A stretch of DNA of 64,000 nucleotides, taken from NCBI GenBank assembly GCA_038314665.1, contig GCA_038314665.1_3677.1, one strand, 5' to 3'. Under the pieces are notes generated by a model that had not been told where the DNA came from, searched no databases, and worked only from the letters and a program-made list of their open reading frames with translations. Each line of letters starts with the position of its first letter. The first letter of the stretch is position 1. Positions 1,573-62,003 of this stretch are shown here, piece after piece. The stretch is from a phage. The translations under genes were made by a program, and so were the position numbers.

Positions 1573-2949
1573 ATGCCATATTTAGATAAAGTGGTAGATG
1601 TTACAGTTAACCTCGGAACCCAGCCTATTGACACTGTAGGTTTCGAAACTCCCCTGTTCATCGCTATCCACAATAACTTTACTGAGCGAGCTCGCGTATA
1701 TGCGGAGCTGGATCAGATGGTGGAAGATGGTTTCGCACAAGGCTCTGCAGCGTATGAGTTTGCAGCAAAAGCTTTTGGTGGTGTATTCCCTCCACAATAC
1801 GTTATGATCGGCAGACAGGCCAAAGAAAAGACCACTGTAGATTTTAAAGGTATTGCTGCCGCAGCTGATACCGATGTCGTAATGACTATTGCAAAAGGTG
1901 ACTACAATACTGCCTTGATAGTCCCTATCTCTGGTGGAACAGGGGCAACTCAGATCGCAGAGGCAATGAAGGAAAAAATTGAGGCTGATGATAGCTTAGA
2001 CGGTATCACCGTGCAGGCCGACGAAGGTGTTATCACCATCACTGGTGATTGTACTGTTGGTTATCATACTGGTAATTATACGATCAAAAACATTGCCAAT
2101 AGTGAAAAACCTTCTACCGTGATCGACAAGATCAACGCTGAGCAGGATAATTGGTACTTCTTGTGCCATGAAGACCACACAGATATTGAAGCATGTGCTA
2201 AGTGGGCTCAGGCTAACTACAAACTGCATGTCTACTCTACTGCAGAAGATGTTACTGGTAAAGACAGCAACATTGCCACTAAACTGAAAGCTGCAAAATA
2301 TGACAGTGTTGGTATGTACGATCCTCGCGCCGACAAAGACTTCCCAGAGGGCGGTATTATCGGAGCTATGGCATCCAACGATCCGTCTTACGGCGACAGC
2401 TTACACTTAAAACAGATGCCTGGTGTTCTTGCACCATCCCTGACCTTGACCCAGCGCATGGCGATTTGGGAGAACAATATTAACTTCTACAGAACAATCA
2501 ACGGTGTTGGTGCTTTCTGGGAAGGTAAATGTGCCTCTGGTCAGTATGCAGATGCTATCCGATTCGCTCACTGGGTTAAGTTTAGATCTGAAGAGTCCAT
2601 GTTTGGATATATGCACCGCCGATCTAATATGGGCCTGAGCATGAAGATGTCTGATGATGATCTTCCGGTTATTAAGTCTGTCCTGATGAACAACCCAATC
2701 AACACTGGCATTAAGAATGGTGCGATCCTGACAGGTTTCGACGAAGACAATAATGTATTCTACGACCCGATCATCACAGTTCCTAAACGTGCAGAAATTC
2801 CAACTAATCAGTTGGCTGCTCGTGTTCTGGAAGGTGTGAAAGTAGAACTGGTGTATAATAACGCCCTGCACTTCGTTCGTATCCGGATCAACGTCCTTCT
2901 GGACAAAGTTGGTTCTAAATCCACCAATGCTGTTGCAATGACTGAATAA
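1573..2949 (+). CDS. tail sheath protein
   Basis: 458-aa ORF with AGAGGAAACAA RBS; N-terminal region resembles contractile sheath proteins; followed by tube, chaperone pair and tape measure in canonical order. Confidence 0.6.
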   Translation: MPYLDKVVDVTVNLGTQPIDTVGFETPLFIAIHNNFTERARVYAELDQMVEDGFAQGSAAYEFAAKAFGGVFPPQYVMIGRQAKEKTTVDFKGIAAAADTDVVMTIAKGDYNTALIVPISGGTGATQIAEAMKEKIEADDSLDGITVQADEGVITITGDCTVGYHTGNYTIKNIANSEKPSTVIDKINAEQDNWYFLCHEDHTDIEACAKWAQANYKLHVYSTAEDVTGKDSNIATKLKAAKYDSVGMYDPRADKDFPEGGIIGAMASNDPSYGDSLHLKQMPGVLAPSLTLTQRMAIWENNINFYRTINGVGAFWEGKCASGQYADAIRFAHWVKFRSEESMFGYMHRRSNMGLSMKMSDDDLPVIKSVLMNNPINTGIKNGAILTGFDEDNNVFYDPIITVPKRAEIPTNQLAARVLEGVKVELVYNNALHFVRIRINVLLDKVGSKSTNAVAMTE

Positions 2950-2959
2950 GGAAGCCTAG

Positions 2960-3433
2960 ATGGAAACTCAAATTTTAACTCCTTATGCGTATGACCCTAA
3001 AAAGGTCAAACTGTATCTGATGCAGCAGCGTGTCACTGGCTTCGCTGCTGACACCAAGATTGTTGTTTCAAGAAACGAAGACAACATTTATCCTCACGTC
3101 GGTGTGGATGGTGAAATGTCTGCGGCTCTGTCCCGTAACCAATCTGGTGTTATGACTGTGTCTTTGCAGAACACTTCTGTATGGAACGCTTACCTCTCTG
3201 ACTGGCAGAAACAGGCATCGATTACTGGCCTGGTATTCTTCCCGGTTCTGCTGGAAGGTAGCCAGGGCCCCGGTATTTCCACAATAGGTTGGATCCAGAA
3301 ACAGCCTGACCTGACTTACGGAACAGAAGTAGGTCAACTGGACTGGGATATCGGTATTCTGGATGCATGGCTCAACCGTGATAACATCACTGGTGCTCTC
3401 ACTGGCCTCGCAGGTCTTGCAGGTATTATCTAA
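2960..3433 (+). CDS. tail tube protein
   Basis: 157-aa ORF immediately after sheath gene, followed by a strong terminator; size and position typical of myovirus tube proteins. Confidence 0.55.
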   Translation: METQILTPYAYDPKKVKLYLMQQRVTGFAADTKIVVSRNEDNIYPHVGVDGEMSAALSRNQSGVMTVSLQNTSVWNAYLSDWQKQASITGLVFFPVLLEGSQGPGISTIGWIQKQPDLTYGTEVGQLDWDIGILDAWLNRDNITGALTGLAGLAGII

Positions 3434-3450
3434 GGGCACACTTTAGCATA

Positions 3451-3480
3451 AGCCTCACCTTAGGGTGGGGCTTTTTGCTT
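3451..3480 (+). terminator. rho-independent terminator
   Basis: GC-rich hairpin CCTCACC-TTAG-GGTGGGG followed by TTTTTGCTTTTTATT. Confidence 0.7.
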
Positions 3481-3524
3481 TTTATTGTTTTGACACACGT
3501 TCTTGAATTGCTTGAAAGGTTAAA

Positions 3525-3553
3525 TTGACAATGCATCATAATCATGGTAAAAT
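3525..3553 (+). promoter_or_regulatory. sigma70-like promoter with extended -10 (TTGACA-N17-TGgTAAAAT)
   Basis: -35 TTGACA 3525-3530, 17-nt spacer, -10 TAAAAT 3548-3553 preceded by TGG. Confidence 0.55.
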
Positions 3554-3596
3554 ACACAAATATGGTGCACAACATGACTAATAAGGATGCTATAAA

Positions 3597-4070
3597 ATGG
3601 CTATAAACTTTAGACCTACAACAGAGATTGATTTAGCAGGGCACAACTTTGTGATCACCCACTGGGGACCGATGAAAGCAATGAAAAACATGCCTAAAAT
3701 CGGTAAGATTGTGGCTGTTCCGCTAGGTGCTATCGGTGGATCTATTATCTCTGGCGGTCAGAATATGGCAGAGGTCCTTCCTACTGCCCTGGCTTACCTG
3801 TTCCAAGAACTTGATGATAACTCTATTGAAGAGTTATTTAAAATCTTGTTCGAAGATGTTACCGTGGATGGTGTAGATAAGCTTAACCCAGATGTTGTGT
3901 TTGCAGGGCATCTTCTGGAGATGATTAAGCTGGCAGGTAAGGTTCTGGAGGTTAACTACGGCTGTTTTTTCACACAAGACGGTTTAGGAAGCCTTCTGGA
4001 GATGTTACAGCAGATGGGTATGATTCAGCAGGTGAACAACCTGGATCAGACTCCGGAAGAGCAGGAATAA
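3597..4070 (+). CDS. tail assembly chaperone (G-like)
   Basis: 157-aa ORF between tube and tape-measure genes; contains slippery heptamer near its 3' end. Confidence 0.55.
   Translation: MAINFRPTTEIDLAGHNFVITHWGPMKAMKNMPKIGKIVAVPLGAIGGSIISGGQNMAEVLPTALAYLFQELDDNSIEELFKILFEDVTVDGVDKLNPDVVFAGHLLEMIKLAGKVLEVNYGCFFTQDGLGSLLEMLQQMGMIQQVNNLDQTPEEQE
3965..3971 (+). other. candidate -1 programmed ribosomal frameshift site (T TTT TTC)
   Basis: Heptamer in X XXY YYZ register of the 3597 ORF; the -1 frame is open from here with no stop through 4330, joining the 4082..4330 ORF. Confidence 0.45.
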
Positions 4071-4081
4071 GCAAGGTTGTT

Positions 4082-4330
4082 GTGAGGGCCAGTGAGTGGG
4101 CAGCCAAGAACAGTTCACTTAACTGGTTCGACTTTCTTTGGTGCAGGGTGCTCAAGAATTTCAAAGGGGAAAATTTTGAATCGCTAAATCTTGCAGATAT
4201 GGCGTATTTCCTGAAGCTCTGTGAGTATCTTGATATTGAAGAATTCCTAGATACCGTCCAAAACAGGGAAATGGAGCGGGAGCAGAAGGCTGCCGCAGCT
4301 GCTGCGAAAGCTAAGCGCAGGAGAGGATAA
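4082..4330 (+). CDS. C-terminal extension of tail assembly chaperone (GT-like, reached by -1 frameshift)
   Basis: Open frame with GTG pseudo-start and no convincing independent RBS; same frame as the -1 shift from 3965-3971; Lys/Ala-rich C-terminus. Confidence 0.45.
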   Translation: MRASEWAAKNSSLNWFDFLWCRVLKNFKGENFESLNLADMAYFLKLCEYLDIEEFLDTVQNREMEREQKAAAAAAKAKRRRG

Positions 4331-4334
4331 TCTA

Positions 4335-4372
4335 AGGGCCGGATTCCTTTTCTGGGATCTGGCCCTTTTTAT
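4335..4372 (+). terminator. hairpin plus U-tract between chaperone and tape-measure genes (possible attenuator)
   Basis: 10-bp stem AGGGCCGGAT/ATCTGGCCCT with one G-T wobble, followed by TTTTTATTATG. Confidence 0.45.
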
Positions 4373-4384
4373 TATGAGGAAACC

Positions 4385-6724
4385 ATGGCTACAAACAAAA
4401 TAGTTGCCACAACAGTCAACAAGATTGGCTTTGAGATAGAGAACTCCTCCTACAAAAAAGCTGTAGAGAAAATTCGCAGTATTGGGAGGGAGTTCAGGAA
4501 ACTAGGTGAGGATTTTAACTCAGCCAACCCCATGGGGAGATGGCAGGCGGTAGCTGTTAAAACCCAGCAGACAATGCAGAGGGTTGCCAGACAGCAATCT
4601 CAGGCAAATGCTAAACTGCACAGGGAGAGCGTAACACAGGCTAAGAAAGAGGCTGCAGTAAGGGCTGCAATAGAACGTAGGGAGAATGCGAGACGTAAAC
4701 AAGCTGTAGGTAATCTTACCGCTAAAAATCCAGAAATGGCTAGGATGCGTAAGTTCTACCAGCAGCAAGCTAAAGAGGCCAAAAAGGCTGCCAAATCTGC
4801 ACCAGTGTCTTACGGTGGTTATAAGGCACCTAAGGCAAGAGTTTTGGCTAATGCCAAATCTTTCAAATATATCCCCGGTAACCCTAATATGGGTGGTGTG
4901 GCTTCCGACCCTAACCTTGTGAAAGCTCAGACAGCCGCTATGAATCGTTATCATAGACAGCTAAGAAGAGACAGTAAAGCTGGTATGGATAATAAGCTTA
5001 TGTCGGATCGTGAGGCAAGGAGAACCCACCTCTACAACTCCGCGATAAGACTTTCTGCCAAGTATGGGGCCGGATTCCGTGGAAGCTTGCCAGGATACTC
5101 AGAGTTAGAGTCCAGGTTTGCTCGTGGGGAGATGAAAAAGTCAACATTTAATGCCCACTTGTCAGCGCTGCAGTCTGGATTTAAAAGCGCCACCAGTCAA
5201 ACGCTTACACTAGGCGATGCCATGAGAGACCTACGTAGATCTGTTATTAATGCAACAGCTGCGTATACGGCTTTTTCTGGATTTACTGCTGTTAACAGAT
5301 CCGGTCACATGATGGAGGGTGCAAGTGCTGCTCTTACTGCTGTTACTGGAGATCCAAACAAAGCCAACAGTGAGGTTGCGTTTGTCCAGCAAGAGGCTAT
5401 GCGTCTTGGTTTTGATCTCAAATCTGGTCTTCAAGGTTACGCCCAGATGGCGGTAAACGCCAAAAACCAGATGACAAATCAGGAGGTTCATGAGCTGTTC
5501 TCTGCATACTCCCAGTATGCTGCTGCTTATGGTGCTGATGAGGTAAAATATCAGCGCGGTATCATGGCAATACAACAAATGCTAGGCAAGGGACAAGTAA
5601 TGTCCGAAGAACTGAAGCAACAACTTGCTGAAGCGTTGCCTGGTGCATACGAACCTTTTATCAAGGCCACCAAAGAGGCTTTTGGTCTTTCTGAACTATC
5701 CATGGATCAGTTCATGGACATGATGAAGAAAGGTGAGGTTAAAACAGCCAAGATCATGAAGTATGTGGCTAAGTACATGAACGAGGCATCTGCAGCTGGT
5801 TATGAAAGAATGCAGAAGTCTAACGTACTGGCAGAAAACAGACTGAAAACCTTCATCGAACTGTCTCGTCAGAAACTGTTCACCCGTTGGGCAGATGAAT
5901 TGACAGAGTTCTACTACACCCTGATCCGCACAGGTGAGACTCTGCAATTTGTGTGGGATGCCTCAGGTGATTTTGTTAGCGGATTTATTAGAGGCCTTAA
6001 CTGGGTTGTTGGTGAGCTAAACAACACTATAGTTAAGATCCGCCTGTTTTTCCTTGAGTGGGGCATCAAATGGGGGTTCATAACAGCTAAGACGAAGGAG
6101 TATTCCGAAGAGCTGCATGACACCTTCAGCACTGCCAAATGGGCAGGGTATGCTGCTGCCATTATGCTGGTAGTGCACGCTCTTACAAAAGGGTTTGTCA
6201 TGGCATCCATGCTTGTAAAAACTTTTAAGTTCCTTAGCACCCTGAAAGGTGCAGCTGGAGCTGCTGGCGCTGGTGCCATCACCACAGGGGGTTCTGTAGG
6301 TGGCGCAGCAGGAAAAGGTGGTGGAATAAAAGCACCAGGCATCAAAGGTACCGGTATGTTAGGCAAGTTGGGGATACTTGGGACATTATTGAGTGCTGGG
6401 GCTATGGTTAATGATCGTTTCAACCCTTTCAGTGAGAGAAATCAACAGCTGGATACTATTAGTGACATGATCCGCAAAGATATAGTATCGGGTGGCAACG
6501 GGTTTGTTAATCCTCTAGACACTTTACCTGGTGGAACCCTTCCGCTACCCGGTGGTCCTGGTTTTGCCTCTCAACTGAGAACCATGGAAATGTTACCTTT
6601 GGAGATCAGCGATGGTAAAATCACCATTTCGATAGATGAAGGTGAGTTTAGCAAAATACTTGATGCAAAACTTGAGTGGGAGAATAACAAAGATATTAAC
6701 TTTATGTCAACAGATCTTTGGTAA
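4385..6724 (+). CDS. tail tape measure protein
   Basis: 779-aa ORF after the chaperone pair; long predicted helical N-terminal part, Gly/Ala-rich hydrophobic segment (GAAGAAGAGAITTGGSVGGAAGKGGG), GGAAACC RBS. Confidence 0.7.
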   Translation: MATNKIVATTVNKIGFEIENSSYKKAVEKIRSIGREFRKLGEDFNSANPMGRWQAVAVKTQQTMQRVARQQSQANAKLHRESVTQAKKEAAVRAAIERRENARRKQAVGNLTAKNPEMARMRKFYQQQAKEAKKAAKSAPVSYGGYKAPKARVLANAKSFKYIPGNPNMGGVASDPNLVKAQTAAMNRYHRQLRRDSKAGMDNKLMSDREARRTHLYNSAIRLSAKYGAGFRGSLPGYSELESRFARGEMKKSTFNAHLSALQSGFKSATSQTLTLGDAMRDLRRSVINATAAYTAFSGFTAVNRSGHMMEGASAALTAVTGDPNKANSEVAFVQQEAMRLGFDLKSGLQGYAQMAVNAKNQMTNQEVHELFSAYSQYAAAYGADEVKYQRGIMAIQQMLGKGQVMSEELKQQLAEALPGAYEPFIKATKEAFGLSELSMDQFMDMMKKGEVKTAKIMKYVAKYMNEASAAGYERMQKSNVLAENRLKTFIELSRQKLFTRWADELTEFYYTLIRTGETLQFVWDASGDFVSGFIRGLNWVVGELNNTIVKIRLFFLEWGIKWGFITAKTKEYSEELHDTFSTAKWAGYAAAIMLVVHALTKGFVMASMLVKTFKFLSTLKGAAGAAGAGAITTGGSVGGAAGKGGGIKAPGIKGTGMLGKLGILGTLLSAGAMVNDRFNPFSERNQQLDTISDMIRKDIVSGGNGFVNPLDTLPGGTLPLPGGPGFASQLRTMEMLPLEISDGKITISIDEGEFSKILDAKLEWENNKDINFMSTDLW

Positions 6725-19301: not shown

Positions 19302-22300
19302 TGCCAATTGCAATGATTGATAACATCGTTGCTTCTGCAAGATCTTCAAGTTATGACTGGAACGCATCCAAGGCAGCTCTGGCTGACAGCCTGAACACTG
19401 TTACCACCAGAACTCTGGATAAGATTTTTGAGGGCAACAAATCTTACAGAAGTCAGCAAGATAGACAAAAGCTTCTCAGATCTTCTGCTGCACCCTGCTC
19501 TGTAGTGTATGGGAAGACACGCACGTCTGGGCTGCTTGCGTTTTTGGAGCAGGACAGAGACAGAACCCTCCATTGTGCCATTGTTCTTGCTAATCATCCT
19601 CTGGAAGGTATAGAAGACATACTCATCGACGGTAATCCTATTTCCTCGTATGGAGATCTGGTATCGTGGGAGCTACATAACGACAGAAAAACATCTGATC
19701 CTTTCATGGGTACACACTGCCCATCGTGGTCACCAGATATGATAGGCAGAGGTATCAGTTGGCTGCGTGCCAGCTTCAAGTTTGACCCCAGTAAGTTTCC
19801 TTTTGGGTTGCCAAACGTTACACTGGTCAAGGTTGGTAAAAAATGCTATGACCCCCGCATCAGTAAAGAGGTGTATACCAATAACGCGGCCTTGGTGATC
19901 CTGGACTATTTAAGAACGTACCTTAAATGTCCTGACGAAACCATCAACTGGGAGTCCTTTAGGGAGGCTGCCAATATATGCGACGAGGCGGTAAAAAACG
20001 CTGACGGAACCAGTGAGCGACGTTACACCATTAACGGTGAGTTTGACATGGATGAGGCCCCAGCAAGTATTATGGCAGAAATGCTGAAAGCTTGCGGTGC
20101 AGACCTTAGTTATGTTGCTGGTAAGTATGGTTTGCTGGTTGGTGCATACTATGGCCCAGCAACAATGACACTGAGTGAGGATTGTGTCTGTGGTGAGGTC
20201 AAGATCTATCCGGAAGCCTCCTTTGACAAGAGATCCAACACAATAACTGGCAGATTCACTAGTCCGACCAAAGGGTATTCTGAAACAGATTTTCCATCAG
20301 TGTTTGTCCCAGAGTGGATAGAGAAGGATGGAGAAAGAAAGATAATTGATATAGACTATCGCTTTGTTACCAGTCCTTATCAAGCTCAGCGTGTTTCTGC
20401 AATCTTCTTAAGACGTGCTAGAGCTGGCAGGATTATTGAAGTCACCTGCAATATGCGAGGTTTTAAATTTAAACCTGGCCGTTACGTTACAATGGACCTT
20501 CCAAGTATTGGTATAGTAGGCCAAGAAATGAGGGTTCTTGAATGGGAGTTCACCAAAAAGGGCGGTGTCAAGGTAAAACTTCGTCAAGATGCTAAAGAGT
20601 GGAATGATGCCACAGGGCAACTTCCGGATTCTGGTGATGTAGATATTCCGATATCTCCATCTGGTGTAGCTCAACCGCAAAACTTCAGATATTCCGTTCT
20701 CCAAGCCGGGGAAGTAACTCACGGTGTTTTGGCTTGGGACAACGTTGGAACTTACGCTCAAAATATTGTGCAGGTAAGAAAGAACGGAGAGATTGTTTGG
20801 ACAGCACAGACAGTTGAGCAGTTTGTCCGAGTAGAAGGCTTGACCAAAGGATCATACACAGCAACCGTGGTTGCAACATCTTATAAAGGTGGTGTATCTC
20901 CAGAAGCGTACTGCGAGTTCAACATTCAGGCACCTGAAGCTCCTGTTTCTGTGGAAGTTAAGCAGGGATACTTTGCTATTACCCTGATCCCGCACAGCAG
21001 AGACTTGGCTAGTGTAAGCACCCAGTACGACTTTTGGACATCTGGGATGACAAGATTGCCAGATACCAGTGATGTAACAGTTACTTCAAAAGCCACTCGT
21101 ATGGGTGTTGGTTCAACTTGGACATCTGAAGGTCTGCAGAACGATAAGATTTATTACTGGTATATCAGGACAACAAATGCTTTTGGTTCATCTGCTTTTG
21201 TGGAGTGTGCAGCCCACTGTTACACATCCATAGAAGATCTTATGCCACAGATTGATGCTGAGTTCAAAAAGACAGAGACTTATAAAGAGCTTACCGCCAA
21301 TCTTGATAATGCAGTCAAGGAAATGGATAAAAATGTTGGTGCAGTCAATGACCGTGTTACTAGCATTTTTGAAGAGCTTGGGGATACAATAGAGGGTGTT
21401 GTCAGAGAGACGACAGAAAAATTTACAGGGGTTAATGGAGAAATTTCTGCCCTTAACAGTAAGCTGGTAGCAGCTCAGCAATCCTTTGACGATAAACTTG
21501 CAGCAGAGTCTGGTAGGCTTGGGTCACTAATCGAGACAACAAATAGATCAACCGTTGATCTTGTTAATCGTAAAACTCAAGCATTGAGTGAGCAAATAAC
21601 TGCAACTCAAGGTACTCTGCGGGAAGAGTTGAAGAACACTGAGAGCAAACTTAACTCCTCTATTCAAGAAACCAACAAGGCAACAACCGATCTGCTAAGT
21701 AAGACAACGGAAGCTATTAAGCAGGATCTGGTGGCAGCTACAGGGAAGATCACCAAGCTGGAAGATGATGTGCAGAAAGAGGTTGCCAATCTGCAAGCAT
21801 CTATTCAAGAAACTAATAGTACAACAGTTGATCTTGTTAATAATACAGCCACAGCGATCCGTCAAGAACTTACCTCTGCAAAACAAGAAATTGTTGACGA
21901 AATGGGTAATATTGATGAGCTCAGGGCTACAGTATCTAATACCTCTAAAGCTGTAACAACACTTGAGGGTAAAATAGATGCTCAGTGGGGAGCTAAGATT
22001 CAGGTTGACAGCCATGGTAATAAATATGTGGCAGGTATCCAGCTGGGCATGGAGGGGTCTGGAGGACAAGTTCAATCATACTTCATGGTTAGTGCAAACA
22101 ACTTTGCGGTATATAACCCCGGAAATGGAACAGCAACCCTTGCTTTCGCAATCAAGAACAACCAAGCGTTCTTGAAAGACGCTTTTATAGAGAATGGCAC
22201 GATCTCCTCTGCCAAGATCGCACAAGAAATTTCGTCAAACAACTACGATGGCAACGGGTACCATAAATACGGTTGGTATATTAACAAGAACGGGCATGCC

Positions 22301-56058: not shown

Positions 56059-56823
56059 TTGAAATTTATCTACAAAGAACACTACCACAAAGGTGTTGTG
56101 TGGAGTCTATTTGACGGGTCTGGTGGTGCAGTCATTGACTGGGCAAAAGCTGGGTACCTGTGCCTGTGCTTTAATGCAGAAGGTGCTGATCACGGCAGTT
56201 ATGCAGAGGTGATAACCGATCATCCCAACATTCACTATGTGGATTATTGGATTGACCCATGGTTCCCTCAGGAAACTTTTTGCATGTACCCAGCTCCAGA
56301 CTTTATTCTTGCATTTCCTCCGTGCACGCATTTAGCGGTATCAGGTGCTGCACATTTTAAGAAAAAGCTGGCTAAGGACCCTATGATCCAAATTAATGCT
56401 GTAAAGGATGCTCGGGTTGCGGAAGAGCTGGGAGAGATTTACGATTGCCCGTGGCATGTAGAGAATCCTGTAGGTGTTATGTCCACACTGTGGCGCAAAC
56501 CTGATTACCGTTTTCATCCTTCTGACTATGGCGGGTATTTACCGGAGGATGATGTAAACCCTTGGTTTCCTGAATTTATAGCTCCACGCGATGCCTATCC
56601 AAAAATAACTTGCGGCTGGATAGGTAATGGATTTATAATCCCGGTCACAAAACCTGTCCCGCAAATAGTTGACGCGGTTAGCGGGTATTCCATGCAACAC
56701 GCTAAGCTAGGTGGAAAAAGTGCAAGGACGAAGATGATTCGAAGCCTCACGCCCCGTGGCTGGGCAAAAGCCGTATTCTTAGCAAACGAGCCTGTGGTAA
56801 GGAGCAGAATTAATGGGAAGTAA
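56059..56823 (+). CDS. DNA (cytosine-5)-methyltransferase-like protein
   Basis: Motif I-like LFDGSGG, motif IV-like FPPCTHLAVSG (Pro-Cys), ENV-like HVENPVG; TTG start at 56059 with AGGAGA RBS (start uncertain). Confidence 0.5.
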   Translation: MKFIYKEHYHKGVVWSLFDGSGGAVIDWAKAGYLCLCFNAEGADHGSYAEVITDHPNIHYVDYWIDPWFPQETFCMYPAPDFILAFPPCTHLAVSGAAHFKKKLAKDPMIQINAVKDARVAEELGEIYDCPWHVENPVGVMSTLWRKPDYRFHPSDYGGYLPEDDVNPWFPEFIAPRDAYPKITCGWIGNGFIIPVTKPVPQIVDAVSGYSMQHAKLGGKSARTKMIRSLTPRGWAKAVFLANEPVVRSRINGK

Positions 56824-58891
56824 ATTTATGGCATCTGCATATAACCGTTTCGGTGAGCCAAACCCGAAAGCAACTAAGTATAAAAGTGGGGGAAGTGTGA
56901 AACGAGACTATCGTGATGAAAAAGAGGTTGAAACTGTAGAGACTGTTTTAGAAAATACTAAAATCGTCCCTGTCCCACAACAAAATATCGGTCTGATGGC
57001 TGCACAATATTTTGGTGTGCGATCAGCATTGTCCCAAGAAGACGGTGTGACAGTTACTGCAACATATTTCCCATATTACGACCGCTACGGGAATCTGTCC
57101 GGTTTCAAAAAGCGTGACTGGACGATCCCCAAAGAGCAACGTGGGCACTTTACGACGGTTGGGATCGTAAAGGCTAACTCCCAAATGTTTGGGCAAAAGC
57201 TGTGTGCATCTTCTAACAACCGTAAGCAGATTAACGTTTGTGAGGGGGAAGGCGATGTTATTGCAGCATGGCAGGCTGCATATCAGATACAAGTAAAAGG
57301 GATTCTCACCAACGCTAAAGCCCCGGCAAAGGTGAAACAGTGGGCTAAAGAGGTCCAGGACGGGATCGATGCAGTTATCAACGGGGGTGATCTGGCAGGA
57401 AAACCCTGCCTGCCTTTTGTTGGAATTAACTGTGGATGTGCAAACGCAGTAGATACTTTTGCAAACAATGAGAAATTTATCCGTAGCTACGGAACAGTGG
57501 TCCTTGCAATGGACAACGATGCAGCTAACGAGGTAGAGAAGCAAAAACACGTTATCAAAGGTGTTGAAGCCACACATAATATCGCGGCATTTTTGATGGC
57601 TGATAACGTTTACCACGTGGAATACCCAAGTGAGGTAAACGACCCTGACGGTGTAAAAGATATCCGTGACATGCTGAAGGCTAAAAAGCTGGAAGATATT
57701 GTCAACATGTTCCGTCACCCAGTCAAATATGTGCCTGATGCTGTATCTGATTTAGAAGACTTCTCCATTGAATCTCTTCGTAAGAAGACTTCTAATGGCG
57801 TAGATATCAGCGCGGAGTTCCCTAAATTGCAGAAGATGCTGAAAGGACTTCACAAAGGCACCTTGATGATGCTGACAGGCCCATCTGGTGGTGGTAAAAC
57901 AACTGTAGCCAAGAAACTAGAGCACTGTATTGCAAAATACTTGATGGATCCGACATGCCCTAAAGCCGATGATTATGAAGAGGATGATCGCCTGTGTCTG
58001 ATTCACCTTGAAGAGGACCCTGAGGAAGCAATTAACTCTCTATACGCCAACCAGTTGGGGTTTGATGTTAAAGAGTTTGTTGAAGACCCTAGTCAGTTCC
58101 TGACTGATCAGGAGCATGCTGAGATTCACCAATCTTGGGCCAAGGCGGGAAAAATCAAAGTGTTCAAGCATTTTGGGTCTATTCCTGTAGATGAGTTGAT
58201 CACTAAGCTTAAACAAATGGTGTGTCTGTATCACTGCCGTTATATTGTGCTGGATCACCTGTCCATGGTAATTTCAGGGCTTAATGTTAAGGATGAGCGA
58301 AAAGAGCTGGACATGGCTATGACCCAACTAGCCGCGTTCTGTAAGCAGTTTAATGTGTTTATCTTGGTGATCGCTCACCTGAAACGCACAGAGATTGTGC
58401 CTCCAAAGGACAAGGATGGGAATCCGTTACCTTTCTGGTATCCTGTACGAAAAGAGAACCTTCGGGGTAGTGCCGGATTGGAGCAACTTAGCTGGGTAGT
58501 TGTTGGGGTGGAGGCAGAAGAGATGGTGGATCGTTCCCGTGGACGTGTCCGACTGGTAGGTCTTAAAAACCGCCCAGCAAAAACGTTAGGCATTGCGGAT
58601 ACCTTAGTTATGGATCCTCACACAGGTAAGTTCCATGATGCCAGCAACTGGTACTGGGACAAAGAAATGCAGATGTTCACAGACGGAGAAGGTGGGGAGG
58701 TTGTTTGGAGACCTCAAGCTATGTTTGAGGATCAAGAGCACGCAGTTGTAGAAACACCTGTAGGTAGGGTTGTGGCTGATAAGGTTGTAACTCCTACTGT
58801 TAACCATGTTGACACACAAGAAGACCTTCCGTATGATGATCCGTCCTCTGACCCTGTTCCCGGTTTTGAAGACGATGAAACACCTTTTTAA
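56813..58891 (+). CDS. primase-helicase (TOPRIM-like N-terminal region plus DnaB/gp4-like helicase)
   Basis: 692 aa; acidic VCEGEGDVIAA and AMDNDAANE in N-terminal half; helicase Walker A LTGPSGGGKT, Walker B IVLDHLSMV, motif NLRGSAGLEQ in C-terminal half; no N-terminal Cys4 zinc domain. Confidence 0.6.
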   Translation: MGSKFMASAYNRFGEPNPKATKYKSGGSVKRDYRDEKEVETVETVLENTKIVPVPQQNIGLMAAQYFGVRSALSQEDGVTVTATYFPYYDRYGNLSGFKKRDWTIPKEQRGHFTTVGIVKANSQMFGQKLCASSNNRKQINVCEGEGDVIAAWQAAYQIQVKGILTNAKAPAKVKQWAKEVQDGIDAVINGGDLAGKPCLPFVGINCGCANAVDTFANNEKFIRSYGTVVLAMDNDAANEVEKQKHVIKGVEATHNIAAFLMADNVYHVEYPSEVNDPDGVKDIRDMLKAKKLEDIVNMFRHPVKYVPDAVSDLEDFSIESLRKKTSNGVDISAEFPKLQKMLKGLHKGTLMMLTGPSGGGKTTVAKKLEHCIAKYLMDPTCPKADDYEEDDRLCLIHLEEDPEEAINSLYANQLGFDVKEFVEDPSQFLTDQEHAEIHQSWAKAGKIKVFKHFGSIPVDELITKLKQMVCLYHCRYIVLDHLSMVISGLNVKDERKELDMAMTQLAAFCKQFNVFILVIAHLKRTEIVPPKDKDGNPLPFWYPVRKENLRGSAGLEQLSWVVVGVEAEEMVDRSRGRVRLVGLKNRPAKTLGIADTLVMDPHTGKFHDASNWYWDKEMQMFTDGEGGEVVWRPQAMFEDQEHAVVETPVGRVVADKVVTPTVNHVDTQEDLPYDDPSSDPVPGFEDDETPF

Positions 58892-58949: not shown

Positions 58950-61379
58950 ATGAGTATGTGGTCTTTCGACCTGGAGGCCTCTGGTTTACTAGAAGACCTA
59001 GATCTTTATTATCACTGCGGCTTGTTTAAAGAGCTGAATAAGAACCGTTTTATGCTGTTCCTTCCTCTAAATGACCGCACACACTACTCTGAAGAGGATA
59101 TAGAGAAGGCTAAGAACTTTATTCTGGCAAAGAAAACTCTTTATAAAGATTTTGAAGTTCGCATAGCAGATTTTTCAGAGTTGGAAGGTTGGCTTACAGG
59201 CAATTCTGACTGGTCACCCACAGCTTTGAACTGCCACAACTGCTACAGCTACGACTTTATGCTGATGGAGAGATTGTCCGGTATTCATTTTGATATGTTC
59301 CGTGATCCTAAGTGTATGGGGACTATCAACGACCACCAGGTTAATCTGTTTGATACATTGGCTATGAGCCGAATTTTGTGGCCTGACCGACCTTTGCCAA
59401 AAGGTTGTCCAGACTCAGTATTTAACCCGGTTACTAAGAAAATGCAGCCTGTTGGACCTCACGGTCTTATGGCATGGGGCTACGCCCTTGGTAACCAGAA
59501 AGTTCAAATTGATGACTGGCGCGATCTCCCGTTGTGGAAGTATGTGGATCGTGTATTCGAGGACGTTATCATCCAGGAGCTACTCTGGAAAGAGCTGGTA
59601 GCGGAATCAAAAGGTGTATTCTACGGCAAATCTGACATGCAGAACTTTATGTACGATCCAGCCAAAGAGAAGCCGAAAGGGTTCAAGAAGATCACCTGGA
59701 AGAACGCATTACGTCGAGGCATGCTGCAGCACTTCCTGATGGAGCTGCAGGCCCGTCAGGGTGTATACTTCGACATAGATGGAGCTATTGCTTTACGTGA
59801 CCGTTGCGATGCGTGGATGAAAGAAATAGCTGATCGTGTTGAACCACAACTGCCTTTAAAAGAGCTGTCAATGTCTCAGCGGCCCAAATTCCCTGAAAAG
59901 CCGTTTAACCAAGACGGGACAATCTCTAATAATGGTTGGAAATGGTTAAAAGATAAGCTTGGCTATCCTGTAGACATGAGCGCTTTAGAGTTCAAAGCCC
60001 CGCCTAAGAGAGCATTTACCTCTACAGGGGATGTCAGCAAGATGGGGATAAAATGGTGTGAAGAGATGGGCTGCAAAGACCCCGATAAGATGGCTGATTT
60101 CTTGAGAGGCTATATTAAGGGCACTTCCACACCACACCCTTTGCCTAAAGAGCTGATGGATCAGGCAATAAGTGATCTACAGCAGAAGCGAATGCCGGAC
60201 TGCAAGATACCTATGAAAATCAGCAATCAGGACGACATTAAGCGGTATCTGATCAGCGCTGGCTGGCTCCCGACAATGTGGAGAACTAAGGATGTAACTA
60301 AAGACAGCAAGAAGAAAGCTCTACCTGATGCAGATGTTGATGCACGAGTATATGCTTATATGGACGAGCTTTTAGAGTCAGAGTATTGTGACCTAATTAT
60401 CAACTTCTGGAACAAAACTGATGCTAAGTTCCAGACAACCGTGCACAAGTTCCGAAGCTTTCCTAACTCCGAAAGGATTAAAAAGGAAGTGTTCGGGAAA
60501 ATACGTAGAAAAGCCAGGGCACTTATTACTTCTCCGCAACTGAAAGATACGTTTGGACACCTGTGCCCGAATCTTGAAAAATTGAACGGAGAGATGGCTA
60601 AAGATATCGTCTTGTGGTTATCATTGCGAAACCGCAGATCGGTCCTTGACCCAATCAAGGAGGATAAGGTTGATACTGGTCTTCTTAATCACCCACGTTT
60701 GAAGATTGACCATAAGCTTCCTGCTAAAAGTTCTGGGCTAACAAACACTTCCAGACAGAAACACAGTATTTGTGCAAACATGCCTAAACCATCTCCTAAA
60801 GTGGTTATGGGTAAAGAGATGCGTAGTCTATGGGGTGTTCCTCCTGGATACTTTCAGATCGGTATTGACGGGTCCAACTTAGAGCAGCTTATCGGGGCTT
60901 GGGGTGCCTTTGAGTTCGACAACGGCCTGTATTATGATGTTGTAAGTAACGGAGACGCACACCAAAACAATGCTGAGGCATATACAAAAGTAGCAGGCAG
61001 AGAGGTGTCCCGTAACGACGGTAAACCTATCACGTATGGTGTTATGTACGGGGCACAAAAAGATAAAGTTGCAGATATGCTGGACATCTCTCCAGAGTTG
61101 GGGCAAAGGGTAATAGATGCACTTTGGGATGCCAACCCCGGTCTTAAGGGGCGCAAAGAGGATCTGGAGAAATTCTGGGAAGCAACAGGTAAGAAGTTTA
61201 TCTACTCTTTTGATGGTCATGCTATCTGGACCCGATCTAAACACTCTTTACTTAATGCATACCAACAAAATGGTGGTGCATCGCTGTGTGACTTAGTCGG
61301 GATACTCATGCACCACCAAATGGTGAAGCGTGGGTGGTACGATGAAGGTGTCCGTCGTATTATTTATTACCATAAATAA
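58950..61379 (+). CDS. family A DNA polymerase, exon 1 (exonuclease, motif A and motif B)
   Basis: 809-aa ORF; N-terminal FDLEASGL (Exo I DxE), motif A GIDGSNLEQL, motif B RNDGKPITYGVMYGA; ORF stops before a canonical motif C region is completed. Confidence 0.65.
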   Translation: MSMWSFDLEASGLLEDLDLYYHCGLFKELNKNRFMLFLPLNDRTHYSEEDIEKAKNFILAKKTLYKDFEVRIADFSELEGWLTGNSDWSPTALNCHNCYSYDFMLMERLSGIHFDMFRDPKCMGTINDHQVNLFDTLAMSRILWPDRPLPKGCPDSVFNPVTKKMQPVGPHGLMAWGYALGNQKVQIDDWRDLPLWKYVDRVFEDVIIQELLWKELVAESKGVFYGKSDMQNFMYDPAKEKPKGFKKITWKNALRRGMLQHFLMELQARQGVYFDIDGAIALRDRCDAWMKEIADRVEPQLPLKELSMSQRPKFPEKPFNQDGTISNNGWKWLKDKLGYPVDMSALEFKAPPKRAFTSTGDVSKMGIKWCEEMGCKDPDKMADFLRGYIKGTSTPHPLPKELMDQAISDLQQKRMPDCKIPMKISNQDDIKRYLISAGWLPTMWRTKDVTKDSKKKALPDADVDARVYAYMDELLESEYCDLIINFWNKTDAKFQTTVHKFRSFPNSERIKKEVFGKIRRKARALITSPQLKDTFGHLCPNLEKLNGEMAKDIVLWLSLRNRRSVLDPIKEDKVDTGLLNHPRLKIDHKLPAKSSGLTNTSRQKHSICANMPKPSPKVVMGKEMRSLWGVPPGYFQIGIDGSNLEQLIGAWGAFEFDNGLYYDVVSNGDAHQNNAEAYTKVAGREVSRNDGKPITYGVMYGAQKDKVADMLDISPELGQRVIDALWDANPGLKGRKEDLEKFWEATGKKFIYSFDGHAIWTRSKHSLLNAYQQNGGASLCDLVGILMHHQMVKRGWYDEGVRRIIYYHK

Positions 61380-61646
61380 CATTGTGGCTTCATAGAGTAA
61401 TCTATGTCGAATAACCTCTTTAACTGCGGGAAGCCTAAACCTTATGGCAAGGTAATCCGCAACGAAGCGCTCAAAAGAGCGAACGCTCAGAGGCCATTCC
61501 GAAAGGAAGTAGACCAGCAAGTGCGGTCGAAATGGGAGGATTCCTGTGGTTGCTTATCATAGGAATATGAGATGGTCCGATCCTACGTGAAAACGTATGG
61601 CTATGCACGTAATGGTGCGGGGTAGCTTAACGACCTACCTGAACTA
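61380..61646 (+). ncRNA. putative group I self-splicing intron core in the DNA polymerase gene
   Basis: Non-coding gap containing, in order, P-like CTGCGGGAAG, Q-like AATCCGCAAC, R-like GCTCAGAGGCCA and S-like GAGATGGTCC elements with short hairpins between; exact splice sites not determined, 5' site probably lies inside the last codons of exon 1. Confidence 0.5.
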
Positions 61647-62003
61647 TTGGATGAGTACCAACTTCAAGTGCCTGACACACCGAAGTATAAGACTGTGTAC
61701 ACCTTCGACACAATTGAAGAACTGGAAGCATTTAAGGCAGAGCAGGAGGCCAAACTTCATGTGTTCGACGGTCATAAGTACAAAAAGGCACGCAAGGATG
61801 AGGACGGAAACGAAGTGGTTGACAGAGACGGAAACACGGTGTACGATCCTATTCTGAACGATGACGGAAAGCTTGAACTTATCTGGAGCCCTGTGGGTGA
61901 AATGGTGGTGCATTGCTTCTGGCAAGCTTCTAAAATGATGGGAGTCCCGTTCCAGATCACAGGTGAATACTTGTGTGGTCGTAACTGGGGTGATTGTCAC
62001 TAA
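61647..62003 (+). CDS. family A DNA polymerase, candidate exon 2 (C-terminal segment)
   Basis: Frame opens at 61626 without ATG or RBS; ends ...GRNWGDCH, resembling the conserved pol A C-terminus ending in His (E. coli pol I ...GENWDQAH, T7 ...GPNWAICH, recalled). Confidence 0.45.
   Translation: MDEYQLQVPDTPKYKTVYTFDTIEELEAFKAEQEAKLHVFDGHKYKKARKDEDGNEVVDRDGNTVYDPILNDDGKLELIWSPVGEMVVHCFWQASKMMGVPFQITGEYLCGRNWGDCH

Follow-up and report, generated by a model that had tools for sequence, protein, structure and literature searches.

A 276-nt group I intron without an ORF very probably splits the family A DNA polymerase gene of an rV5-like E. coli phage

Why does the family A DNA polymerase gene of an rV5-like E. 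coli phage stop short of its catalytic motif C, and what lies between it and the frame that follows? In the window analysed here (a 64,000-nt stretch of phage DNA, contig GCA_038314665.1_3677.1 of assembly GCA_038314665.1, on whose + strand lie all the features described below), the polymerase ORF runs from 58950 to 61379 (809 aa) and, as a first-pass annotation had noted, is closed by a TAA (61377-61379) after motifs A and B; in an alignment these fall opposite QAGIDASGLE and KTFIYGFLYGA of T7 DNA polymerase, and the match of the ORF to Pfam DNA_pol_A is partial. The frame that follows carries the pol A-like C-terminus previously recognised in it (...NWGDCH, ending at 62000), and it has indeed neither an ATG nor a Shine-Dalgarno sequence, the latter sought in the preceding 25 nt. 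A group I intron had been proposed to separate the two frames. We hold it very probable, on comparative sequence grounds, that the gene is split by a 276-nt, ORF-less group I intron and that this exact copy is spliced from the RNA. The intron is not new: in nearly identical phages it is part of existing annotations and has been reported.

The reading as a group I intron is supported by five independent lines of evidence: a covariance-model match, a compensated fold, empty sites, the restoration of motif C and the comparison of a copy without an HNH gene with HNH-bearing relatives. The covariance-model search proposed earlier gave a match to Rfam RF00028 of 64.7 bits (E = 4e-14; the curated gathering threshold for this family is 50 bits), with the full model (positions 1-253) placed at 61364-61599. 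This was the sole Rfam match in the 64-kb window in a permissive scan (E <= 0.1), which thus found no second intron. The intron, of IA2 type, occupies 61374-61649, on the evidence of RF00028, of the comparison with the empty site of phage DrSchubert and of copies that are 100% identical, and it separates the codons for His and Asp in catalytic motif C (..IIYYH/DEYQ.., the slash marking here and below the insertion point). Exon 1 (58950-61373; 808 codons, M...RRIIYYH) holds motifs A and B, and exon 2 (61650-62003; DEYQLQV...NWGDCH plus the stop) contributes the carboxylates of motif C together with the C-terminal portion of the enzyme. At the 3' end, the intron closes with an omega-G (G61649), directly before the GAT GAG of exon 2 and invariant in 13 homologs. 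A non-coding gap of 267 nt had been noted; this figure is correct as the distance from the stop to the TTG at 61647, but the intron itself is 276 nt long, and both the AAA-TAA closing the upstream "ORF" and the TTG from which the next one "starts" belong to the intron. Both the sequence and the ORF list place the in-frame TAA at the second codon of the intron, and translation of unspliced RNA would end in a truncated protein of 809 aa, without motif C and inactive.

Conceptual splicing yields a 925-aa product with a continuous reading frame, in which the junction aligns with H653/D654-E655 of T7 polymerase, so that the HDE of motif C is restored. The same uninterrupted sequence exists in nature: the intron-less Vequintaviruses DrSchubert, bov11CS3, naam, nimi and ECP32 have a polymerase that corresponds to the conceptually spliced one. 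The DrSchubert polymerase, with which exon 1 is collinear, has the same length as the spliced product, is identical to it at 921/926 positions, shows the junction TATTACCAT/GAyGAr as predicted and gives no Rfam match. In the first 12 nt of exon 2, four synonymous differences in a row distinguish intron-containing from intron-less alleles.

The four core elements P, Q, R and S had been read from the sequence in this order, and each of them occurs once in the region, on the P/Q/R/S positions of the Rfam group I consensus (CTGCGGGAAG at 61424-61433, AATCCGCAAC at 61454-61463, GCTCAGAGGCCA at 61485-61496 and GAGATGGTCC at 61569-61578). Short consensus motifs recur by chance, and two of the four 10-mers were found again in the window (at 21617 and 50120); this general caution is all that speaks for a fortuitous resemblance, or an assembly artefact, with the polymerase simply truncated. 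These additional copies were rejected as chance occurrences, since both fall within long coding ORFs, away from any other core element. Against this explanation stand also the E value of 4e-14, the occurrence of the same 276 nt in 23 phage records (rV5 among them) with >=99% identity, the compensated fold and the clean insertion proven by the intron-less alleles; we regard it as already refuted.

The intron can be folded into a structure of 74 pairs that runs from P1 to P9.2, contains the P3/P7 pseudoknot and is 96.6% paired over 13 diverged homologs, aligned with MAFFT (with the long P6 loop of VLCpiM5b masked). Slid controls were 36-41% paired, although the tested structure was derived from the window sequence and is therefore favoured in this comparison; changes on both sides of a pair in other homologs are free of that bias. 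Such changes affect 38 pairs (135 cells), and the observed values were reached in 0/500 shuffles. The P3-P9 architecture expected of a group I intron is thus present and accompanied by compensatory substitutions, with double-sided changes in P3, P4, P6, P7 and P8, that is, in both core domains (P3-P8 and P4-P6). An unconstrained minimum free energy (MFE) fold (z = -2.74) recovers P1, P2, P3, P4, P5, P6a, P7.1, P7.2, P8, P9, P9.1 and P9.2.

P1 (61370-61387) is formed by the last 4 nt of the exon and the first 2 nt of the intron (61370-61375), which pair with the guide UUGUGG (61382-61387). In this 6-bp helix a U61373.G61384 wobble sits exactly at the predicted 5' splice site, and U61373 is the base that ends the His codon demanded by the intron-less allele; all six pairs are invariant in the 13 homologs, hence covariation is uninformative for P1. 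P2 (61391-61406; 6 bp with a GUAA loop) is 100% paired, with 5 of its 6 pairs changed on both sides. The strands of P3 (61415-61420 and 61534-61539, the latter assigned with the homolog pairing test) are also 100% paired and 3 of the 6 pairs are double-changed, CCUC with GAGG being exchanged for CUCC with GGAG or CCUU with AAGG. P4 (61425-61430 paired with 61456-61461) and P5 (61433-35 with 61451-53, closed by a short L5) form a segment (61425-61461) that holds the P and Q elements; 93% of its cells are paired, and P4 shows a G-C to U-A exchange. It is followed by a minimal P6/P6a hairpin (61463-61485, CGCUC-AAAA-GAGCG), at the position of the HNH cassette of the relatives.

P7 joins the R element (5' strand, 61490-61495) to the S element (3' strand, 61574-61578, placed by the same test) in a pseudoknot with P3. 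Its 5 pairs are 100% paired and 2 of them are double-changed (G-C to A-U and U-A to C-G), and the arrangement of G61490-C61578, a bulged A61491 and an invariant G61492-C61577 matches the group I consensus layout, by which G61492-C61577 would be the presumptive guanosine-binding pair. Between P7 and the 3' strand of P3 lie P7.1 (61497-61508, with a GAAA loop), a GUA linker (61509-61511) and P7.2 (61512-61528); GUAG is invariant among the homologs, and P7.2 is 97% paired, with 3 double-change pairs. P8 (61542-61564), also found in the MFE fold, has 9 bp here and is shorter in relatives, with 4 double-change pairs. The 3' peripheral domain (61582-61639) contains P9 (61582-61600, with a GAAA loop), P9.1 (61605-61618) and P9.2 (61621-61639), all of them 100% paired and present in the MFE fold, with 5, 2 and 3 double-change pairs, respectively. 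P9.1/P9.2 extensions are typical of IA2 introns. The presence of P7.1 and P7.2 between P7 and P3', joined by G-U-A, is the hallmark of this subgroup (PMC3428280), and judged by this criterion of sequence and fold the architecture is IA2. Two further interactions were considered and are not claimed: a P10 of only about 3 bp (CAU with AUG) is possible but weak, and it is not conserved in the Vibrio copies, which like the Pseudomonas copy have its guide-side bases deleted; and for a tertiary pairing of the L9.2 loop (UUAACGAC) with J2/3 (GUCGAA), both sides are near-invariant and the few variants (Vibrio 10AMN) are not compensated.

By the general group I mechanism, from which the catalytic steps are taken, the whole polymerase gene would be transcribed as a single pre-mRNA, in which the intron would adopt the P1-P9.2 fold of the ribozyme. 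An exogenous guanosine, occupying the G61492-C61577 site of P7, would attack after U61373, held as a U.G wobble in P1 by the guide UUGUGG, and the freed 3'-OH of exon 1 would then attack after the terminal G61649. The exons would be joined (...TAT TAC CAT to GAT GAG TAC...) into the message for a 925-aa polymerase with the catalytic Asp-Glu intact, the ligated read being expected as ...TATTACCAT/GATGAGTAC... and the junction peptide as ...IIYYHDEYQLQVPDTPK. Splicing in vivo is inferred from phage viability and from RT-PCR on the related phage CB7. Copies of the intron in rV5, PDX, navn and others are 100% identical to the one in the window; rV5 is propagated in the laboratory and needs a working polymerase, which counts in favour of splicing.

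The annotation of near-identical phages is not uniform. Phage LL12, whose region is 98.8% identical to the window, carries the same element, annotated as a two-part joined CDS with the note "intron-interrupted gene", and according to its genome announcement a predicted intron disrupts the polymerase gene. GenBank gives the same join for the BASEL phages MaxTheCat and WalterGehring, and in all these records the splice site is placed by homology only. The older rV5 record and paper miss the intron and describe a 775-aa polymerase, with two very likely spurious ORFs annotated inside the intron. In the literature, we found neither a ribozyme class nor a fold or splicing experiment published for the copy present in the window.

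The rV5 RefSeq record, with its two separate "DNA polymerase" CDSs, could be taken to mean that the gene is genuinely split, with no RNA removal and two ORFs translated apart into parts that assemble non-covalently. There is a precedent in the NrdA of phage Aeh1, which is split by mobE into separately translated parts (cited in PMC7344957), and one HNH-associated insertion of CB7 did not splice (PMC7344957). However, exon 2 lacks the signals for its own translation, the break would fall between adjacent active-site residues (His/Asp-Glu), the intron-less alleles are exactly collinear, and there would be no reason for an unspliced spacer to be conserved as a covariation-supported ribozyme. A genuinely split polymerase is thus highly improbable, and under the intron reading the "second DNA polymerase" gene of rV5 is exon 2. 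The polymerase should be annotated as one joined 925-aa CDS (58950..61373 + 61650..62003).

The intron had also been described as free of a homing endonuclease gene, and this description holds. The two gap ORFs (52 aa and 86 aa) have no Pfam domain match and overlap paired ribozyme helices, and were treated as spurious, as very likely are the short gap ORFs gp222 and gp221 of the rV5 RefSeq record; tblastn with four intron-associated HNH proteins found no HNH homolog in the 64-kb window. Related introns of FFH2, WalterGehring, Av-05, LTH01, K54_rec2 and SPA01, on the other hand, have an ORF in P6, mostly annotated as HNH or homing endonuclease (that of FFH2 has a weak HNH_3 match), and pairs of introns with and without the ORF differ only at P6. 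On this comparison, the HNH gene found in P6 of close relatives was lost from the intron of the window, or was never part of it. Lacking this gene, the intron is probably not mobile on its own, and is probably passed on by vertical inheritance or moved in trans when phages co-infect.

In its family the intron of the window is the most compact version: P5, P6 and P7.1 are reduced to minimal hairpins, and blastn does not align its central segment (61439-61507) with the versions of FFH2 or HMD-6. Together with the absence of the endonuclease gene and the weak P10, these traits would suit a decayed, cofactor-dependent or inefficiently splicing remnant rather than an autonomous self-splicing ribozyme. 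We consider this decidedly unlikely, as the core helices, the bulged-A/G-C motif of P7, the GUA linker and the omega-G are all intact, its Rfam score (64.7) is above those of the HNH-bearing versions (26.8-47.5), and identical copies reside within an essential gene of many viable phages.

Other phage polymerases are interrupted in a similar manner. The introns of the T7-like phages PhiI and W31, likewise in the family A DNA polymerase of enterobacterial phages, were reportedly described by Bonocora and Shub in 2004 as self-splicing IA2 introns, with the endonuclease I-TslI. In the Klenow fragment the motif is H881-D882-E883, so that site 881 is presumably the same motif C position as that of the window intron. 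The insertion in PhiI and W31 has been reported at the position that carries the number 881 in E. coli Pol I ("site 881"; PMC3428280). The exact identity of the sites, and also homology between the sequences, are presumed. Their introns and that of the window alike have P7.1-GUA-P7.2; PhiI and W31 differ in having an HNH gene in P6a, like the ORF-bearing relatives of the window intron, and are podoviruses, whereas the hosts of the window intron are Vequintavirinae myoviruses. Closer is phiTE (Certrevirus, Vequintavirinae), which has an intron at exactly RRIIYYH/DEYQ; its 5' end (AAATAACATTGTGGC...) is nearly the same as that of the window intron, and in the 3' half the two are 73% identical. 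In CB7, the polymerase introns, reported as common to phiTE, splice in vivo according to RT-PCR and Sanger sequencing (PMC7344957); the shared insertion site is confirmed in the phiTE sequence and would extend to CB7 by this reported kinship. The CB7 and phiTE introns carry an HNH ORF, absent from the window intron, and their polymerase gene is interrupted once more, in motif B (TYG/MYG), by an intron that the window lacks. More distant are the introns of SPO1, SP82, Bastille and Pf-WMP3 (with I-HmuI, I-HmuII, I-BasI and I-PfoP3I), also group I IA2 introns in family A polymerase genes of phages. These encode HNH nicking endonucleases (PMC3428280); they are inserted at site 674, in the fingers subdomain, instead of motif C, and differ also in the presence of the ORF and in their hosts, which are Gram-positive bacteria or cyanobacteria.

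At the motif C site, related introns are found in Mydovirus, Avunavirus and Certrevirus (Vequintavirinae), in Vibrio phages and in the Pseudomonas Pakpunavirus SPA01. Occupancy of this one conserved site is patchy: among Vequintaviruses that are >90% identical, alleles are intron-less or contain a 276-nt, a 328-nt or an 842-nt HNH-plus intron. The polymerase gene series also includes an intein and free-standing HNH genes. It might be speculated, in a way compatible with the evidence, that the 276-nt form is no passive relic but a streamlined intron, kept in an essential gene either through trans-mobilisation by an HNH of the FFH2/WalterGehring type during co-infection or through a GTP-dependent splicing that gates polymerase production, an idea that we rate as rather unlikely; if it were true, the four silent differences in exon 2 would mark the recognition site of the endonuclease and a continuing conflict of cleavage with resistance. 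Since SPO1 (1990) and PhiI/W31 (2004), phage polymerase genes have been known to carry group I introns at conserved sites, so that the locus raises no new principle. What it offers is a natural series for the gain and loss of endonuclease genes and for homing (one site without an intron, two introns without an ORF and one with an HNH gene), found in phages that are used for therapy and typing.

The apparent polymerase gene, which is preceded by a DnaB-type primase-helicase gene (56813-58891), is an 809-aa ORF closed by a TAA (58950-61379), as the first-pass annotation had it, and the following listed ORF opens with a TTG at 61647 and carries the polymerase C-terminus that had been recognized there (...NWGDCH, at 62000). 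The 267 nt reported between them hold as the distance between both ORFs, but not as the extent of the intron, which comprises 276 nt (61374-61649, last base G); both the AAA-TAA closing the first ORF and the TTG opening the next are intronic. Exon 1 ends at U61373 (...TAT TAC CAT) and exon 2 starts at G61650 (GAT GAG TAC...), giving ...IIYYH-DEYQLQV.... These limits were established because two independent arguments, the alignment of T7 motifs and the intron-less alleles, lead to the same junction. A phmmer search of solved structures matched the conceptually spliced product to T7 DNA polymerase without a break, covering motif A (QAGIDASGLE), motif B (KTFIYGFLYGA) and motif C (wvH653-D654-E655iqv). 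By tblastn, the Vequintaviruses bov11CS3, DrSchubert, naam, nimi and ECP32 encode the conceptually spliced peptide in one unbroken piece, with 97.8-100% identity. In DrSchubert the polymerase CDS is exactly as long as the conceptually spliced product (925 aa plus stop; 921/926 identical), its junction reads TATTACCAT followed directly by GACGAA, and this intron-less locus, used as a negative control, gave no Rfam match.

The region 61374-61649 is a genuine group I intron of the IA2 type. In an Rfam scan of all 64 kb, the sole match above the curated threshold was to RF00028 (Intron_gpI) at 61364-61599 of the + strand (full model, 64.7 bits where the gathering score is 50, E = 4e-14), with no further Rfam matches in the window even at E <= 0.1. 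The group I 5' splice site is defined by a U.G wobble in P1, and in the Rfam alignment exon CCAU plus intron AA pair with UUGUGG, placing U61373 in such a wobble. The strings that the first-pass annotation had proposed as core elements P (61424-33), Q (61454-63), R (61485-96) and S (61569-78) were all found; its observation is confirmed and its interpretation supported. Two of the core 10-mers have second copies, at 21617 and 50120, which were rejected as core elements and are chance matches, since they sit in long coding ORFs and no further core elements lie near them.

A fold compatible with the P3-P9 architecture, running from P1 to P9.2, was derived from the Rfam alignment and inspection: P1 (61370-75/61382-87), P2 (61391-96/61401-06), P3 (61415-20/61534-39), P4 (61425-30/61456-61), P5 (61433-35/61451-53), P6 and P6a (61463-85), P7 (61490-95/61574-78, with a bulged A61491 and crossing P3), P7.1 (61497-508), P7.2 (61512-28), P8 (61542-64), P9 (61582-600), P9.1 (61605-18) and P9.2 (61621-39). 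Unconstrained ViennaRNA folding of 61364-61659 recovered every helix apart from P7, which is pseudoknotted, and the two outer pairs of P6, at -88.4 kcal/mol against -75.0 +/- 4.9 in shuffles (z = -2.74). P7.1 and P7.2 are linked by an invariant GUA, an arrangement diagnostic of subgroup IA2 (PMC3428280). The L9.2 loop UUAACGAC (61631-61634) and J2/3 GUCGAA (61407-61409) are nearly invariant in the intron family, show 3-4 bp complementarity and could form a tertiary contact; there is no covariation between them across the family, and compensation is absent in one Vibrio variant.

Homologues at the same polymerase site were collected from HMD-6, VLCpiM5b (Mydovirus), TH18, Av-05 (Avunavirus), LTH01, K54_rec2, FFH2 and WalterGehring, the Vibrio phages K470, 10AMN and qdvp001, and the Pseudomonas Pakpunavirus SPA01; in all of them exon 1 ends in ...TACCAT and exon 2 starts with GAyGAr. 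In their alignment (A2), made after masking ORF-bearing or over-long P6 loops, 96.6% of the cells of the 74-pair structure are paired, compared with 36-41% after shifting the 3' partners by 1-3 columns, a difference inflated by the structure having been taken from the window sequence. Double-sided changes in the other sequences, free of that bias, affect 38 pairs (135 cells), and in 500 shuffles the values for pairing, double changes and covariation never reached those observed. One or more compensatory pairs occur in each of P2, P3, P4, P6, P6a, P7, P7.1, P7.2, P8, P9, P9.1 and P9.2, which bears out the fold. P1 is invariant and gives no covariation information, because exon and guide sequence are both conserved.

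The intron copy in the window encodes no endonuclease, as had been noted: no Pfam domain is present in the 52-aa and 86-aa ORFs of the gap, and four related HNH proteins used as tblastn queries had no homologues in the 64-kb window. FFH2, WalterGehring, Av-05, LTH01, K54_rec2 and SPA01 carry a ~165-aa ORF inside P6, mostly annotated as HNH or homing endonuclease (the FFH2 ORF has a weak HNH_3 match). Since the introns of HMD-6 and WalterGehring, and those of TH18 and Av-05, are nearly identical and differ only by the P6 cassette, endonuclease gain or loss has occurred repeatedly in this family. The simple deletion derivative is the 328-nt form of HMD-6; this origin was rejected for the 276-nt form, whose P5, P6 and P7.1 are minimal versions of its own, whose P8 is longer and whose 61439-61507 stretch is unalignable with other forms by blastn. 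Four third-codon positions in a row, within the first 12 nt of exon 2, distinguish the window from intron-less DrSchubert (GAT GAG TAC CAA against GAC GAA TAT CAG; window 61650-61670, DrSchubert locus 2687-2707, immediately 3' of the insertion site), compared with ~1 difference per 50 nt elsewhere, and FFH2, which has the HNH gene, shares three of the four. In these few sequences, the differences are only suggestive of a co-conversion tract or of endonuclease target-site variation.

Other insertions were observed in related polymerase genes. 241Ecol014PP and EPFV3-03/2025 (both at 2664-3659 of their loci) carry an in-frame insertion of 996 nt in exon 1, shortly before motif B (window 60963-60989, without it), which starts with CYSGDTQILT, ends in ...VAVCGN before Cys and has a weak N-terminal Hint_2 match (E 5e-5, below the Pfam cut-off); it is probably an intein, in a gene also bearing the 276-nt intron. 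A 677-bp insertion 12 nt ahead of the polymerase stop in phita32 (3693-4369) and 241Ecol014PP (4662-5338), absent from the window (~61991), encodes a free-standing 215-aa NUMOD4 + HNH_3 + HTH homing endonuclease at the polymerase 3' end, and an HNH gene overlaps this end in Av-05 and K54_rec2. A second intron site within motif B (TYG/MYGAQ), empty in the window (~61037-61045, TAT GGT/GTT ATG), is filled in phiTE (~1905-2620 of its locus), K54_rec2, Av-05 and TH18, with sub-threshold Rfam matches of 39-47 bits. The P9-P9.2 domain has 80% matches in Vibrio phage 1.161.O (~1201-1284 of its locus), in an intron splitting the ribonucleotide reductase small-subunit gene, and the 5' half has a match within the large terminase gene of Av-05 (KM190144 120740-120872), so related intron modules occur in different host genes. 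At least 14-21 Campylobacter jejuni-labelled, unannotated records (MG065635-MG065690; 'Campylobacter phage' A141, D1, C5 and others) match this E. coli Vequintavirus region, mostly at ~97% identity and several with the intron at 100%; the hosts given for them are questionable and may reflect contamination or mislabelling.

By the group I mechanism, the polymerase pre-mRNA would fold, a guanosine at the P7 G61492-C61577 site would attack after U61373, and the 3'-OH of exon 1 would then attack after G61649, ligating the exons. Translation of unspliced RNA would halt at the TAA (61377-79), yielding a product without the motif C carboxylates; T7 D654, equivalent to one of them, is one of the two catalytic aspartates. 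The intron presumably must be removed efficiently in the phages carrying it, since a phage needs its polymerase and 23 phage records, including laboratory-propagated rV5, have the intron at >=99% identity. The closest experimental support for splicing comes from Certrevirus CB7, of the same subfamily, whose HNH-containing polymerase introns, reported as common to phiTE, splice by RT-PCR and Sanger sequencing (PMC7344957). The phiTE intron lies at exactly the same position (RRIIYYH/DEYQ) and has a near-identical 5' end.

That V5-like phages carry this intron was already known. For LL12, 98.8% identical to the window across the region, GenBank records the gene as a two-part join ('intron-interrupted gene; intron splice site predicted based on homology to AKU44295'), and the BASEL collection records MaxTheCat and WalterGehring have joined polymerase CDSs, with boundaries set by comparative annotation according to the collection paper. 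Neither the original rV5 paper nor the RefSeq record recognised the intron; they describe a 775-aa polymerase and introns in the terminase gene only. The RefSeq record has two 'DNA polymerase' CDSs, the exon-2 one with an assigned internal start, and two hypothetical ORFs, gp222 and gp221 (NC_011041; window 61404-61562 and 61597-61857), inside the intron or running from it into exon 2 in another frame. These two CDSs, which lack domains and overlap ribozyme helices, and the internal start are very likely annotation artefacts. We take Klenow H881-D882-E883 to place site 881 at the motif C position used here. PMC3428280 lists three intron sites in phage family A polymerases and assigns 'site 881 (E. 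coli numbering)' to the self-splicing IA2 introns of the T7-like phages PhiI and W31, in which P6a holds an HNH gene; putative homology with these introns is a strong lead. The present analysis contributes the ribozyme class, a covariation-backed fold and exact coordinates, together with the finding that related introns of several phage groups share one motif C site.
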